Origin: Acidimicrobiales bacterium | GTDB lineage: Bacteria; Actinomycetota; Acidimicrobiia; Acidimicrobiales; CATQHL01 | NCBI GenBank assembly: GCA_965221525.1 | Contig: CBDCSG010000008.1 | Span: 852,575 to 916,574, forward strand | DNA length: 64,000 bases | Direction: 5' to 3' | Shown: positions 27,879 through 32,676 of the stretch, piece after piece | How positions within the stretch are numbered: the stretch's first letter is position 1 | Layout of the letters: every line of letters begins with the position of its first letter | Program-made: the position numbers and the translations under genes | Notes under the pieces: model-generated | What the model was told of the DNA's origin: nothing | What the model saw: the letters and a program-made list of their open reading frames with translations, nothing else | Databases searched by the model: none

Positions 27879-27912
27879 GCGGCGGCCCGCGGTGCGGGTT
27901 CGCAGCGCCGGC

Positions 27913-29190
27913 TCAGATGGAGGCGGCCATCTCCAGGAGGTCGTCAGCGTCGGGACTGCCCGGTCCGTTGTCGACGATCTCTCCCGACGGTGACAGGAGT
28001 ACCCACCAGGGGTGAGAGGCGACTCCCAGCAGCGTCGCCGGGCCGAACGACTCGCTCCAAACCACCGGGAACGACTGGATTCCCGTCACGGCCGCAAAGC
28101 TCTGCGCCTCTGCCAGGGAGTCGGTCACCCCCAAGCCGATGACCAGGACCTCGTCGCCGTGGTTTCGAGCGAACTGCTCGATGCCGGGGGCCTCCCGGCG
28201 GCAGACCGGTCAATGGGGTGCCCAGACCCACACGAAGATGGGTCGGTCGGCGGGTGCGAACGAGGCCAGAACGATGCTGTCGCCGCTGAAGACGTCGATG
28301 ACCGTGGAGGTGGGAAGGTCGTTCGGTCCGACCACCTGGGTGGTAGGTGGTGGCGGCGGCAGATCGGGCGGCGGTGGCGGAGGATCGGGCGGTGGGGGCG
28401 GATCGGGCGGCGGCGGCGGAGGATCGGGTGGTGGCGCTGGTTCGACCTCGGCTGCCTGCTCGCCGGCCCGCTGTGCCTCCTCCTCGGCCGCAGCCGCCGC
28501 GGCCTGGGCTTCGGCTTCGGCTGCGGCCTGTTCGGCCGCGCGCTCTCTGGCCTCGGCCTCCGCCTGCTCCGCAGCCGCCGCGGCCTGGGCTTCGGCTGCG
28601 GCTCGGGCTTCGGCTGCTGCTTGTTCGGCTTCGGCTGCTGCCTGTTCGGCTTCGGCTGCTGCCTGCGCTGCTTCGGCTGCGGCCTGTTCGGCCGCGCGCT
28701 CTCTGGCCTCGGCCTCCGCCTGCTCCGCAGCAGTCTGTTCGGCGTCGGCTGCGGCTTGGGCTTCGGCTGCTGCTTGTTCGGCTTCGGCTGCTGCCTGCGC
28801 TGCTTCGGCTGCGGCCTGTTCGGCCGCGCGCTCTCTGGCCTCGGCCTCCGCCTGCTCCGCAGCCGCCGCGGCCTGGGCTTCGGCTGCGGCTCGGGCTTCG
28901 GCTGCGGCCTGTTCGGCTTCGGCTGCGGCCTGCTCGGCCGCGAGTTCGTCAGCCGATGGTGAGGGCTCGGGTGCGGGCGCCGGAGGTGGCGGTGCGGGTT
29001 CGCGGGGCGGCTCGGGGGCGGTGGCAGCCGGTGGCGCCGGCGAAACGCTGCCGGGCCGCGCCGGTTCGGCGCCGGAGCAGGCTGCGGCGGCCAGGGCTGC
29101 GATGGCGATGACCGCGGCGGCGACGGGGAACAGGGCACGCGGCGGTCGGGTTCGCCGGTCCCGGGGCCGCGTCGAGTCGGTGCAACTCAC
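27913..29190 (-). CDS. Putative selenoprotein: TlpA/redoxin-like thioredoxin-fold lipoprotein with long Ala/Glu stalk (Sec at TGA 28210-28212)
   Basis: Lipobox AAAAC; in-frame TGA within WVWAPH-U-PVCRREAP; the frame stays open for another 98 codons with thioredoxin-fold character (VIGLG, GVASHPWWVLLSPSGEIV); SECIS-like hairpin follows the TGA. Confidence 0.85.
28174..28209 (-). promoter_or_regulatory. Putative bacterial SECIS element 1
   Basis: After UGA: CCGGU-CUGC-C-GCCGGG-AGGCC-CCCGGC-AUCGA-GCAG; 6-bp upper stem, loop starts at +17 with G in second position, lower stem CUGC/GCAG. Confidence 0.72.
28445..28946 (-). repeat. Degenerate coding repeats encoding (AAEQAAAEAE/AEARERAAEQ)n helical stalk
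   Basis: Block GGCTGCGGCCTGTTCGGCCGCGCGCTCTCTGGCCTCGGCCTCCGCCTGCTCCGCAGC recurs at about 28519, 28675 and 28807, with shorter sub-repeats. Confidence 0.9.
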
Positions 29191-29244
29191 AGTTGGCAAG
29201 ACTCTACCGTCGAGGCCGCCGGTGTCGTTGGCGGCGGCCTCGTG

Positions 29245-29895
29245 TCAGAGTGAGGCCACCTGCTCGAGAACGGTGTCCTCATCGATCTCGCCGTAGCTGC
29301 CCACGAGGAGTTCCCCGGACGGCGTGAACAGGGCCCACGCAGGCTGGCTCGCAACGCCCAACTGGCTCCACGAGTCGAAGGTCTCGTCCCAGTACATCGG
29401 GAACGAGGAGATCCCGGTGCCCTCGACGAATTCCCGCGCGAAGTCCAGATCGTCCTGGGTTCCCAGGCCGGCGACCAGAACCTTGTCCCCGTGTTCTCGA
29501 GCGAACTGCTCGACGCCGGGCGCCTCCCGGCGGCAGACCGGTCAATGAGGTGCCCAGAACCACAGGAGTATCGGCCGGTCGGCGGGCGCCAGTGAGGACA
29601 GCACGATGCTGTCGCCACTGACGACGTCCACGACGTCGACCGCGGGGAGGTCATTGGGCCCCGACGCATCGGCGGGCGGCGGTTCGGCGGCAGCGGGCGG
29701 CGGGGACGGTTCCGCGGCAGCGGGCGGCGGGGGTGGCTCGGGCGCGGGCGGCGGCGAAACCTGGGCCGGTTCGGTGTCGCTGCAGGCGGCCGCCGCCAGA
29801 GCGGTGACGGACAGCAGCACGACGGCGAGGAGCTTCGCAGGCCCTCGCGCCGGTCGCGCCGAAGGCGTGGGTCGGGCTGGTCCGCTGCTGTTCAC
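29245..29895 (-). CDS. Putative selenoprotein: short TlpA/redoxin-like thioredoxin-fold lipoprotein (Sec at TGA 29542-29544)
   Basis: Lipobox LAAAAC; LWFWAPH-U-PVCRREAPGVEQFAREHGDKVLVAGLGTQDDLDFAREFVEGTGISSFPMYWDETFDSWSQLGVASQPAWALFTPSGELLVGSYGEIDEDTVLEQVASL; paralog of the adjacent gene on both sides of the TGA. Confidence 0.87.
29506..29541 (-). promoter_or_regulatory. Putative bacterial SECIS element 2
   Basis: After UGA: CCGGU-CUGC-CGCCGGG-AGGCG-CCCGGCG-UCGA-GCAG; 7-bp upper stem with the same geometry as element 1. Confidence 0.72.
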
Positions 29896-29947
29896 AGGTA
29901 GCAGACTCTACCGCTGGGCGGCGCGCGTGTGGCGGCGCCGCGTGCGG

Positions 29948-31738
29948 CTACGGCTCGATCCAGATGGCCTCGACGGCGGCGATTCTCGGCCCGCTCGACG
30001 ACAGGAAGTCGAAGATCACGCTGATCTGCGCCCGCAGCGGGTCGGGCGTCTCCTCGGAATCGCCGGACTCGCCGTCATCGGTCGGGAGCGCCGGCGGCAA
30101 CTCGTTGCCCCCGGTGTTCGTGTTGGCCGCGGTCGTCGTTGTCGGGGTCGGGGCGGACTCCAGTTTCGGAGGCAGTGTCGACCGGCCCACGGAGGCCTGG
30201 TAGATCGAGACGTAAGCCAGGTTGGCGAAGTCGGAGTGGGGTGCGCCGAGCGGTCCGGGGGCGTTGATCCTCACGACCGCGCTGTCGCCGCTGCCGTCGA
30301 TCCAGAAGAGGTCTGCCGGTGAGGCCGTCGTGTCGGAATCGCGCGGCGAGGGAATGTCGTGGGTGCGGTTCCACCAGTCGTCCCCGGTTCCGGCGTCGGA
30401 GGTCTCCAGAACCTTGACATCGCCGGGATCGGCTCCCCAGCGGACCACCAGCCCGCCGGGCACGAACGATGCGGACTCGACGTTCGGCCCGCTCGTGAGT
30501 TCTCCGGCCAGGCTCGCCATGACGTCCAACTGGTCGCTCGTCAGCGTGAGGGGTTGCGCCACGAGCGTGTCGGTCGACACCCAGCCGGCCTGCCCTGCGG
30601 TTGTGATGACCTCGGCCCATGTCGAGCTGGAGACGGTTGACCGGCGATCGGTCAGGCGGGTGCCGTCGGCGAGGAGGCCGACTTCGCCGGCAGCGTCGTC
30701 GGCCTCGGCGCGGATGACCGATCGGGCGTTGCCGATGGTGTGCGCCGTCAACTCGCTCGTGTGAACGGCGATGGCGTCGCCATCTCGCCGGTGCACCTGG
30801 CACGGCTGGTCGAGAAGGTCTCCGAACGCGGCGCAGTCGCCGTCGAGGCGATACTCGGCGACACCGACGTTGGAGAACTGGAAGACCGTGGCGTTGAGTT
30901 GGGTGAGGAACTGCTGGGCCGTCACCCCGACCTCGGCGTCGAATGCGTCGCCGAGGTCGCCGGGGAGATCGATCGTCACCCACCGGCTGTCCGATGCCGC
31001 CGTGGCGGTCCGCGTGGAGTCTGCGCTCAGTCCCCGGAAGCCCGCGGTGGTGTCGGCTTCGTTCGGGCCGCCGAGGAGGATTCCCAGAGCGGTTGCGAGG
31101 TCGTTGGTGGCGACGGCCCGCTTGCGGGGGGCGGCGGTGGTGTCGCCGCAGGCGAAGTAGACGGTGACCGACGCCGTCAGGGTGCCGTCGTCACCTGCCG
31201 GCTCGACCGGGCATGCCGTCGTTTCGGCGACGGTCGTGGTCGCCTCGTCCAGTCCCGTGTCGCTCTTCTCGCCGGCCTGCGGGGGTGGGGGAGTCGCAGG
31301 GGCATCGGCCGGCGTCGGGTCGACCGCGGGTGGTGTGGGCGGCGCGACGGTCGTCAGTTGCCCGGAGTCCCGTTCCGACGACTCGATGCCCGCCGGGGGC
31401 GGTGGAGGTGTCCCGCCCTCCGGCGGCGGGTCGGTGGTGCCCGGGTCTCTCTCCGGCAGCGGCGCGACAGCAGCCGGATCGGGGGTGGCGGCAACCGGCG
31501 GGGTTGCTGCGATCTCACCTCCGGGATCCGGGGCGGTCTGCGTCAGGGTCACCGATACGACGGTGGCGATCGCCGCGCAGGCCGCCGCGACGAGGACGAA
31601 CGCCGGTCGCAGGCGCACCTGCGGCAGGCGTCTCGTGCGGCTCGTGCGGCGCTGGATCTCGAACAGGGCGCCGGGGGTGACCTCGACCTCGCCGGTCCGC
31701 TGGGCGAAGGCGTCACGGAGGCGTTGTTCGATGTTCAC
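29948..31738 (-). CDS. Putative membrane anti-sigma-like protein with GerMN-like and SH3-like extracellular regions
   Basis: N-terminal EQRLRDAF..V....L.EIQRR then a TM helix; VTVYF..LGILLGGP..QLNATVFQF (GerMN-like); WAEV...GQAGWVS (SH3-like); coupled to the ECF sigma stop codon. Confidence 0.7.
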   Translation of the reverse strand: MNIEQRLRDAFAQRTGEVEVTPGALFEIQRRTSRTRRLPQVRLRPAFVLVAAACAAIATVVSVTLTQTAPDPGGEIAATPPVAATPDPAAVAPLPERDPGTTDPPPEGGTPPPPPAGIESSERDSGQLTTVAPPTPPAVDPTPADAPATPPPPQAGEKSDTGLDEATTTVAETTACPVEPAGDDGTLTASVTVYFACGDTTAAPRKRAVATNDLATALGILLGGPNEADTTAGFRGLSADSTRTATAASDSRWVTIDLPGDLGDAFDAEVGVTAQQFLTQLNATVFQFSNVGVAEYRLDGDCAAFGDLLDQPCQVHRRDGDAIAVHTSELTAHTIGNARSVIRAEADDAAGEVGLLADGTRLTDRRSTVSSSTWAEVITTAGQAGWVSTDTLVAQPLTLTSDQLDVMASLAGELTSGPNVESASFVPGGLVVRWGADPGDVKVLETSDAGTGDDWWNRTHDIPSPRDSDTTASPADLFWIDGSGDSAVVRINAPGPLGAPHSDFANLAYVSIYQASVGRSTLPPKLESAPTPTTTTAANTNTGGNELPPALPTDDGESGDSEETPDPLRAQISVIFDFLSSSGPRIAAVEAIWIEP

Positions 31739-32286
31739 GCCTCGTCCCCGGTCTCGTCGTCGTCGGAGCCACCGAGCGTGCGTTCGAGAGCCGCGAGGCC
31801 CCGGCTGGCGTGCGTCTTGACCGAGCCGCGCGAGATGCCGAGCACCTCGGCGATCTCGGCCTCGCTCAGATCGAGGTAGTAGCGCAGCGTGAGCACCTCG
31901 GACTGCCGGCGCGGCAGGGCTCGGACCGCATCGATCAGCGCATCACTCCGGAGGCGGTCCATGGCGCCGGACTCGGCACTCTCGATGGGTGGGGGCGCCT
32001 CGGGTGCCAGGCGGCGGCGCACCATGCGGCGGCGCATGCGCGAGCGGGCGCCGTTCATGACCATGCTGCGCAGGTAGGCGGCCTCCTTGCCGGGCTCCGG
32101 GAGGGTCTGCAGCGTGTGCATCTTCACGAAGGCGTCCTGCACGACTTCCTCGCAGCTGCCGACGTCATCGAGGAGAAGGGAGGCGAGGCGTACGAGATCC
32201 TTGTAGTGGTCGGCGAATAGCCGGACCAGCAGATCATCTTCTGTCTCTCTCCCTGGTGGGCTGCCTCGCCGCGGTGGGGGGCTCAT
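31735..32286 (-). CDS. ECF RNA polymerase sigma factor (actinobacterial SigE-like family)
   Basis: LVRLASLL..EEVVQDAF, AYLR, LPRRQSEVLTLRYYLDLSEAEIAEVLGISRGSVKTHASRGL. Confidence 0.93.
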   Translation of the reverse strand: MSPPPRRGSPPGRETEDDLLVRLFADHYKDLVRLASLLLDDVGSCEEVVQDAFVKMHTLQTLPEPGKEAAYLRSMVMNGARSRMRRRMVRRRLAPEAPPPIESAESGAMDRLRSDALIDAVRALPRRQSEVLTLRYYLDLSEAEIAEVLGISRGSVKTHASRGLAALERTLGGSDDDETGDEA

Positions 32287-32602
32287 GGCTGGAGGCTCGT
32301 CGCGTCAGCGCAGGCCGGATTGACCTGTACACGTACAGACGCACGAAGGGGCCTGCGCGTTGACATCGCGGGACGGAGAATCGGGTCGCTCATGGCAAGC
32401 GCCGACACGCTAACCAGCCCCGGACGCCACCGACTGCCACCCGCGGGAATCACCATCTCGCGGCGTTCCCCTGCCGACGTCAGACGGCATGAAAGCCGGT
32501 GGGCCGGGCGCGGGCGCGGGCGGGGTTGAGGGTTGCACACGTCGAATCCGGGTGGCCGCAGGATGTGCCGCGAGCCGCCCGGCGCCACGGGGCTCGCCGA
32601 AG

Positions 32603-32676
32603 TGGAGCTAACGGGACTCGAACCCGTGACCTCTGCCATGCCATGGCAGCGCTCTAGCCAACTGAGCTATAGCCCC
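32603..32676 (-). tRNA. tRNA-Ala (GGC)
   Basis: Reverse complement GGGGCTATAGCTCAGTTGGCTAGAGCGCTGCCATGGCATGGCAGAGGTCACGGGTTCGAGTCCCGTTAGCTCCA; anticodon GGC, G3:U70 identity pair. Confidence 0.97.

Follow-up and report, generated by a model that had tools for sequence, protein, structure and literature searches.

In the 64,000-nucleotide stretch of Acidimicrobiales bacterium DNA analysed here (the window; C8:852575-916574 of a genome of 3.65 Mb in 8 contigs, which are cited below by their C numbers), two neighbouring genes, A and B, encode thioredoxin-fold proteins interrupted by an in-frame UGA that is very likely a selenocysteine (Sec, U) codon. Within the coding sequence of both genes, this UGA is followed by two consecutive RNA hairpins, hereafter hairpin 1 and hairpin 2, which together would form a bipartite selenocysteine insertion sequence (SECIS) element: hairpin 2 would bind SelB, the selenocysteine elongation factor, and hairpin 1 would act as a folded spacer between it and the UGA. 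The probability that we give to this reading is roughly 0.6. The initial annotation of this DNA had described hairpin 1 and taken it for the SECIS of the lineage. Its observations turned out to be largely right, although they covered only half of the element. Its interpretation was half right: the region was the right one, but the hairpin it named is probably the accessory half.

The first point to consider is the reading of the UGAs themselves. Standard open reading frame (ORF) calling splits genes A and B at the TGA, as expected if the UGAs were true stops or breaks in split genes or pseudogenes. Such an explanation is scarcely credible, and the UGAs are very likely Sec codons, because the TGA falls exactly at the first Cys of a CxxC motif, is kept in 75 distinct orthologous sequences of many genomes, lies in a frame open on both sides, and occurs in a genome equipped with the full Sec machinery. 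More precisely, the two proteins share the same active site, W-x-W-A-P-H-U-P-V-C (WAPH-U-PVC), in their C-terminal thioredoxin-fold domain, and the Sec forms of the family show WAPH-U-PxC where the Cys forms show WAPH-C-PxC or WAPW-C-xxC, the U being aligned with the first Cys of CxxC. As for the machinery, profile matches over curated cut-offs were obtained for selB (267 bits), selA (383 bits) and selD (353 bits), the latter having an in-frame TGA of its own (GAG-U-AGK), and a tRNA-Sec with anticodon TCA scores 66.5 bits. selA and selB lie side by side, about 10 kb away from this tRNA gene (Table 1).

The conservation of the TGA was followed at two taxonomic levels. Within the family, homologous loci were located in 20 of the 21 genomes, and 32/32 distinct orthologue sites are TGA. 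At the order level, 33 sites in the 30 best loci comprise 32 TGA and 1 TGC, and further Cys-form homologues have TGC or TGT aligned at the Sec codon. An in-frame search across the order (E-value <= 1e-8) matched 102 of 201 genomes, a tally which includes three unpublished genomes from which no sequences were taken; most of the matching rows contain one TGA and a minority none. A U site was present in all of 20 additional TGA-bearing regions. Among 20 TGA-less regions, 12 have a recognisable CxxC site, and the other 8 (L089-L094, L096, L097) did not fit the active-site pattern and were left out. The resulting comparison sets consist of 75 distinct 54-nt Sec-form stretches (alignment A1) and 13 Cys forms; the counts out of 75 given below refer to the former. 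Seven extra Cys sites were taken from named Microthrixaceae and Sporichthyaceae metagenome-assembled genomes (8 loci, of which L185 gave none; L178 repeats the 63 nt of L064).

Hairpin 2, which is nearly invariant, spans +29..+45, counted from the first nucleotide after the UGA; half of it thus falls outside the 36 nt of the initial annotation. In alignment A1, its helix (+29..+34 with +40..+45) is paired in 98.2% of the cells and is the sole helix of the RNAalifold consensus. The pairs +30:+44 (CG in 67 sequences, UA in 7, AU in 1) and +32:+42 (AU in 69, CG in 3, UA in 2, GC in 1) change on both sides and are never broken. The loop reads AGUUC in 48 sequences, AGUUU in 17, AGUUG in 8, AGUUA in 1 and GGUUC in 1, so that loop positions 2-3 are occupied by GU in all 75. 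Besides, two codons whose third positions are paired in this stem are kept in a form that is rare in the genome, as judged from 938 long ORFs: codon +40..+42 is GCT, which makes up 4% of the Ala codons, in 69/75 sequences, and codon +43..+45 is CGA, 6% of the Arg codons, in 53/75. When each sequence was compared to 200 synonymous recodings, the hairpin 2 region appeared more stable than 95% of them in 67/75 cases (observed median -8.8 vs recoded mean -3.7 kcal/mol), and the energy is -8.8 kcal/mol in genes A and B alike. In the 13 Cys forms, the same region has a median of -2.8 kcal/mol and is significantly more stable than its recodings in 0/13. The AGUU hairpin is likewise absent from the 7 extra Cys sites, six of which fold at 0.0 to -3.6 kcal/mol, the seventh (L182) reaching -8.2 kcal/mol with a different sequence. 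In more distant Sec forms, stem variants such as UCGUGC..GCACGA and GUGGAGC..GCUUCAU can be read from the sequences. Finally, the peptide encoded by hairpin 2, (V/I/L)-E-Q-F-A-R, is nearly universal in the Sec subfamily and absent from the Cys forms examined, which suggests that the RNA element fixes this peptide.

Hairpin 1 was found in 75/75 Sec-form orthologues, with at least 5 pairs in 74/75 and a loop starting between +15 and +19. In a fixed register, 76% of its cells are paired and both-side changes occur at 4 of the 7 pairs, many sequences shifting register. The compensatory changes include a case that is synonymous on both sides (CGG...CCC to AGG...CCU), the change of CGC..GGC to CAC..GGU, and CGU..GAC in place of the usual pair, and whole stems have been replaced in CCUGGGC-GAGG-GCCCAGG and CGGCGCC-AUGG-CGCCG. 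The energy of the region is -14.7 and -13.0 kcal/mol in the two genes of the window, and its median is -13.0 kcal/mol in the Sec forms vs -5.8 in the 13 Cys forms. The loop takes 24 different sequences in the 75 orthologues, among which no conserved GU was seen. Hairpin 1 is a real Sec-linked feature, whose shape is conserved and whose sequence is free.

The two paralogues were also compared directly. As initially described, the 36 nt following each TGA differ at two positions only, +21 (C/G) and +28 (A/G), and this near-identity was found to extend to +45 with the same two differences. The greater divergence of the flanks was also borne out, since codons for the same residue differ in 1/14 cases within codons +1..+15 vs 15/38 outside (Fisher p = 0.04), namely 8/22 upstream (codons -30..-1) and 7/16 downstream (codons +17..+45). 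When 62 nt were folded from either gene, the minimum-energy structure contained the GCCGGG/CCCGGC stem, with its 5-nt loop AGGCC or AGGCG from +17, and the change at +28 does add a seventh base pair in gene B. The lower CUGC/GCAG stem proposed beneath it did not survive: the two arms are complementary on paper and pair in no minimum-energy fold, the GCAG bases being taken by hairpin 2. Across the orthologues this candidate stem was rejected, as it shows no both-side change, only C-to-U wobbles, and shares bases with the covarying hairpin 2. Folding of the two sites confirmed hairpin 1 as a shape in the 62-nt folds, but not as one more stable than chance, and in the 96-nt fold of gene B it is displaced by another pairing. 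Because single-sequence folding is no better than chance, the case rests on the comparison of orthologues and not on fold energy.

The two hairpins occur together in the Sec forms, and neither is present in the Cys forms examined. The minimum-energy fold of +5..+48 contains exactly two hairpins in 74/75 Sec forms, with helices 0-1 nt apart in 66/74. A closing stem or three-way junction around both was sought with RNAalifold on -30..+87 (n=75), which returned hairpin 2 alone. The same layout is found in selD, for which 43 distinct Sec-form sequences were collected from the family and the order (alignment A2): 39/43 fold into two hairpins, the second loop contains GU in 38/39, and the helices are 0-1 nt apart in 37/39. 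The first selD helix is 82% paired, its pair 17:23 being CG in 13 sequences and GC in 11, and the second is 95.7% paired with both-side changes at 4 of 7 pairs. No such two-hairpin fold was seen in two Cys-form selD sequences. Sec-form selD has long been known; what is new here, relative to that knowledge, is the post-UGA build, a putative spacer plus a GU-loop hairpin, which it shares with the thioredoxin-like genes. A Sec-form selD is also mentioned for another Acidimicrobiia lineage in the available part of bioRxiv 10.64898/2026.04.03.716425.

The genome contains seven further predicted selenoprotein genes, which are selD, two thioredoxin-like genes, two AhpD-like genes (C-x-x-U) and two UGSC-type genes, and a GU-loop hairpin follows the UGA in each of them. 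The third thioredoxin-like gene (Trx3) has the active site WSPY-U-GTC. The fourth (Trx4, L120), a 409-codon open frame, has WSSW-U-GC, an unusual W-U-G-C motif in which a single residue separates U from C, and is kept in 12 of the 21 family genomes, this one included. With respect to the distance between UGA and loop, the genes fall into two classes. The near class (18-20 nt) has five members: AhpD-like 2 (GGUCU at 18 nt), Trx4 (GGUCU at 20 nt), the two UGSC genes (AGUGU and AGUUU at 18 nt) and AhpD-like 1 (CGUUG or GUU at 19-20 nt). The distant class (32-34 nt) consists of selD (GGUCC at 32 nt) and the three thioredoxin-like genes A, B and Trx3 (AGUUC at 34 nt in the latter). The distant class has an intervening hairpin; in the near class there is only one, which begins at +10 to +15. 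In the divergent paralogue Trx3, hairpin 2 is identical letter for letter to that of genes A and B, whereas hairpin 1 differs, with loop CAU. The hairpins of the UGSC genes, GUGC-AGUNU-GCAC, have the G-C and C-G closure and the AGU start also seen in hairpin 2. The GU-loop hairpin is conserved across the family in selD (17 distinct sequences), the two UGSC genes (22 in all), AhpD-like 2 (13, its Cys paralogues being without the hairpin) and Trx4 (13). Such hairpins are rare by chance: a search of both strands (7.29 Mb) for 5-nt RGUNN loops on stems of at least 5 pairs counted 1185, so that about 0.004 would be expected in a 27-nt span. The common denominator of the post-UGA loops of this genome is a G-U in a small loop, in agreement with the published consensus (PMC13188914) and with G23/U24 of E. 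coli (PMC8659212). Since one SelB must serve all the Sec genes of the genome, the hairpin with the shared GU loop, namely hairpin 2, which is also by far the more constrained of the two, is the likelier SelB site. In crystal work on SelB bound to SECIS RNA, a G and a U are reportedly flipped out.

In this context, the published consensus deserves attention. The bSECISearch model, as given in the available part of PMC13188914, describes a single stem-loop that lies within the coding sequence directly downstream of the Sec-UGA, with a loop of 3-9 nt, an upper stem of 4-16 bp, a G at loop position 1 or 2 whose next base is mostly G or U, 16-37 nt between UGA and loop, and an energy of -7.5 kcal/mol or lower. 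In genes A and B, the in-frame UGA aligned with a Cys of the homologues is immediately followed by not one but two stem-loops that agree with this model. Hairpin 2 has a 5-nt loop with G then U (75/75), 6 bp, 34 nt to the loop and -8.8 kcal/mol. Hairpin 1 has a 5-nt loop with G at position 2 then G, 6-7 bp, 16 nt to the loop and the energies given above, and it starts at +10/+11, like the minimal E. coli hairpin in what is accessible of PMC8659212. The difference from the model is that the stretch separating the UGA from the putative recognition hairpin is occupied by an extra hairpin, which covaries as well. Taken alone, the model picks the wrong hairpin or cannot choose, given that the filler, hairpin 1, also passes in this genome.

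This fit of hairpin 1 to the consensus and to the canonical position, together with its presence in 75/75 orthologues and its compensatory changes, would support the initial annotation, according to which the SECIS bound by SelB is hairpin 1, whether extended by the lower CUGC/GCAG stem or not, hairpin 2 then being secondary; it weighs to that extent against the assignment of SelB to hairpin 2. Nevertheless, the fit does not hold across the orthologues as a whole. A G within the first two loop positions, true of genes A and B and stated as a mark of the element, occurs in only 49/75 orthologues, and a variable loop without a conserved GU stands against a GU in the loop of 7/7 other Sec genes. 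The comparison with selD, which the initial annotation had put forward as a check, and with the other Sec genes favours the other hairpin. In the same line, Trx3 keeps hairpin 2 exactly and has a different hairpin 1, and the lower stem fails for the reasons set out above. The hairpin 1 motif was also expected to seed a genome-wide selenoproteome search, yet it is not usable for this purpose, its pattern matching only genes A and B in the whole genome. A Sec-specific conserved RNA structure does lie directly 3' of the UGA, as had been claimed, but hairpin 1 is likely not its SelB site, and we regard this alternative as distinctly improbable.

The way in which a hairpin encoded so far downstream could work may be framed as follows. 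The UGA-recoding signal would be a bipartite RNA element inside the coding sequence, where about 9-10 unpaired nt after the UGA would lead to hairpin 1 (about 17-19 nt) and then, after 0-1 nt, to hairpin 2, a 6-bp stem with closing G-C and C-G pairs and the loop A-G-U-U-N, which would present the G-U recognised by SelB. By folding back, hairpin 1 would leave the base of hairpin 2 at a path length of about 10-11 nt from the UGA, just where the SECIS hairpin starts in those Sec genes of this genome that have only one. As to the origin of this layout, the codons right after U, which encode the CxxC motif and the first residues of the next helix, presumably could not also spell a GU-loop hairpin, and the recognition hairpin would have been placed further on, where it would dictate the residues (V/I/L)-E-Q-F-A-R.

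A related possibility is that the two hairpins act jointly, either because hairpin 2 holds SelB and hairpin 1, at the mRNA entrance, stalls the ribosome or positions it, or because SelB contacts a coaxial stack of both. The abutting helices described above, in the thioredoxin-like genes as in selD, would permit such stacking, and hairpin 1 begins at about 10 nt after the UGA. We nonetheless consider it rather unlikely, as hairpin 1 has no conserved nucleotides that would mark a contact and a single hairpin is enough for five of the other Sec genes; nothing in the data separates it from the spacer model as such.

Several points weigh against the proposal of hairpin 2 as the SelB site with hairpin 1 as a spacer. 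Binding of SelB to hairpin 2 is suggested by loop similarity. Besides, the linear distance from the UGA to the start of hairpin 2 is 28 nt, compared to 11 nt for the minimal E. coli hairpin (accessible part of PMC8659212), a difference which the spacer idea would reconcile, and hairpin 2 has no counterpart of the bulged U17 of E. coli fdhF. Four selD sequences and one thioredoxin-like sequence do not conform to the two-hairpin fold. The energetic signal of hairpin 1 is modest: its synonymous recodings still fold at a mean of -9.1 kcal/mol and only 15/75 sequences beat 95% of them (median fraction 0.105), so that of the covariation or synonymous-site constraint anticipated for this hairpin the former was found in the stem and the latter to a modest degree. 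Most of the stability of hairpin 1 follows from the encoded amino acids. Dinucleotide-shuffle z-scores of the single sequences are weak, at -1.13 and -0.59 over 62 nt and -0.53 and -0.80 over 96 nt, in DNA of 70% G+C. Finally, shuffle controls overstate significance since the orthologues are related, and the recodings for every genome drew on the codon usage of this one genome.

The stability of the recodings and the weak z-scores are also what would be expected if the hairpins had no RNA function and were a by-product of the conserved peptide PxCRREAPGxEQFAR written in G+C-rich codons. This explanation is highly implausible, for the rare GCU and CGA codons are kept at paired positions, hairpin 2 beats its recodings in the large majority of sequences, the compensatory changes include non-synonymous ones, and the EQFAR peptide is itself missing from the Cys forms examined.

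With regard to known systems, the element is, as far as sequence goes, a bacterial SECIS by its position and by all the consensus items tested, with an unusual and seemingly bipartite build. In the E. coli SECIS, G23/U24 of the apical loop are the conserved recognition bases and the minimal hairpin requires 11 nt from the UGA, according to the accessible part of PMC8659212. The present element resembles the fdhF SECIS described there in the G and U of the apical loop and, if hairpin 1 is folded out, would resemble it in an effective distance of about 10-11 nt. It differs in that hairpins 1 and 2 are uninterrupted, without the bulged U that fdhF has in its 5' arm, that hairpin 2 starts at +29 instead of 11 nt after the UGA, and that its loop AGUUN is not the E. 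coli loop. A second Sec subfamily of the same protein (WAPW-U..C..EAPAVAE; L192-L201, L204) has neither hairpin 1 nor hairpin 2; a different, single hairpin CUGC-GGUC-GCAG, with its loop at +27, was recognised by eye in 11 of 20 regions of other genomes of the order and resembles, again by eye, the E. coli loop.

The proteins fall within the broad class of thioredoxin-fold UxxC selenoproteins found in marine metagenomes. With the Prx-like and thiol-disulfide isomerase-like members described in PMC1088965 (likened here by description, from the available part of the source), they share a thioredoxin fold, a U-x-x-C motif that replaces C-x-x-C, the existence of Cys-form homologues, and a hairpin downstream of the UGA. 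No SECIS family of Rfam was matched at the gathering score over the whole window or at E up to 10 over 27900-29900, a failure of Rfam to catch bacterial SECIS elements that is also reported in the accessible text of bioRxiv 10.64898/2026.04.03.716425. A subset of bacterial SECIS elements that misfit the single-hairpin consensus is mentioned in the available part of the 2026 review PMC13188914. A description of a two-hairpin bacterial SECIS was not found in the literature covered, which comprised neither the original bSECISearch paper nor the figures of PMC1088965, so that its absence from print is not claimed; within that scope, the apparent two-hairpin build, its occurrence in two unrelated genes and the passing of the putative filler hairpin by the consensus model were not found described.

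The positions of the features are collected in Table 1. Both proteins have a hydrophobic N-terminal segment, the last residues of which are LAAAAC, and next to it a linker rich in Pro and Ala. In gene A, whose TTG start is uncertain, this linker is very long and repetitive: Pro-rich PPPPD units precede some 170 residues of AEAQAAAEQ-type tandem repeats (periods 21, 42, 132 and 153 in Tandem Repeats Finder), which gene B does not have. Gene B matches the Pfam families AhpC-TSA (33.2 bits), Redoxin (29.8), Thioredoxin_8 (28.1) and Thioredoxin (27.6), all above cut-offs; gene A matches AhpC-TSA, Redoxin and Thioredoxin, each just under the cut-off. Among the NCBIfam models, a weak likeness to TlpA, ResA and DsbE was obtained, far below the cut-offs, and no equivalog is assignable; the weak matches of gene A are to DsbE, ResA and MauD. 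The neighbours of gene B are a 596-codon ORF that matches no Pfam family, the start of which is overlapped by 4 nt by the 3' end of a gene for an extracytoplasmic function (ECF)-type sigma factor (Sigma70_r2, r4_2), and, nearby, a tRNA-Ala.

Table 1. Position of the genes, codons and hairpins considered in the text (window coordinates, or contig:positions for features elsewhere in the genome).
Feature	Position	Strand	Description
Gene A	27913..29199	minus	TlpA/ResA-like thioredoxin-fold protein; 429 codons, U at codon 330 (TGA read as U); TTG at 29199, final stop TGA 27913-27915
Gene B	29245..29895	minus	shorter paralogue of gene A; 216 codons, U at codon 118; GTG start at 29895, TGA stop at 29245-29247
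In-frame UGA, gene A	28210..28212	minus	predicted selenocysteine codon 330
In-frame UGA, gene B	29542..29544	minus	predicted selenocysteine codon 118
Hairpin 1, gene A	28183..28199	minus	+11..+27, GCCGGG-AGGCC-CCCGGC, 6 pairs
Hairpin 1, gene B	29514..29532	minus	+10..+28, CGCCGGG-AGGCG-CCCGGCG, 7 pairs
Hairpin 2, gene A	28165..28181	minus	+29..+45, UCGAGC-AGUUC-GCUCGA, loop 28171-28175
Hairpin 2, gene B	29497..29513	minus	+29..+45, UCGAGC-AGUUC-GCUCGA, loop 29503-29507
Linker of gene A	28349-28938	minus	PPPPD units, then tandem repeats
596-codon ORF	29948-31738	minus	adjoins gene B
ECF-type sigma factor gene	31735-32286	minus	
tRNA-Ala	32602-32676	minus	
selA and selB	C5:259725-262114	minus	
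tRNA-Sec	C5:271720-271811	plus	
Further predicted selenoprotein gene	C3:98672-99784		
Further predicted selenoprotein gene	C3:375126-376181		
Further predicted selenoprotein gene	C7:113600-114826		Trx4
Further predicted selenoprotein gene	C7:120617-121180		
Further predicted selenoprotein gene	C8:433097-433630		
Further predicted selenoprotein gene	C8:975080-975622		
Further predicted selenoprotein gene	C8:992510-993148		

The search for Sec genes in the genome relied on several scans. A genome-wide scan for in-frame TGAs by the G+C content of codon positions missed genes A, B and selD with a strict filter and gave 858 candidates, mostly antisense frames, with a loose one; the latter were used only to spot Sec genes by eye, and the genes so spotted were then checked by their orthologues. 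A descriptor scan (RGUNN loop, open frames, coding-like composition) returned 5 sites, of which 4 look real and 1 resembles a stop codon with a start codon after it; the scan missed the thioredoxin-like genes and selD through its composition and length filters, and the nine genes were therefore tested directly. Other in-frame TGAs beside a Cys (...NYKGC-U, ...CPCWN-U) were noticed at C8(+) 150929, C8(-) 842800 and C5(+) 201915 (0-based, on the named strand), with coding-like composition on both sides and no clear GU hairpin; these may simply terminate one gene ahead of another that happens to share its frame.

At the level of the lineage, it is tempting to propose, tentatively and with slightly less than even odds, that this actinobacterial order possesses a class of bipartite SECIS elements, in which a spacer hairpin of conserved shape and free sequence would hold a GU-loop SelB hairpin, encoded 30 nt downstream, at the canonical distance. 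selD and the TlpA-like oxidoreductases would have arrived at the same solution, the codons next to Sec being too constrained, and the hairpin would fix (V/I/L)EQFAR in the latter. If this is true, single-hairpin SECIS predictors would systematically choose the wrong hairpin in such genes. Bacterial SECIS elements being poorly modelled, these genes offer a comparative case where two covarying hairpins can be told apart. They may moreover give a concrete, testable rule for the distance of the SelB site from the UGA, a lineage loop consensus (a stem, then N-G-U-N-N) that recovers the other selenoprotein genes of the genome, and what would be a case of a conserved peptide imposed by a signal in the RNA.

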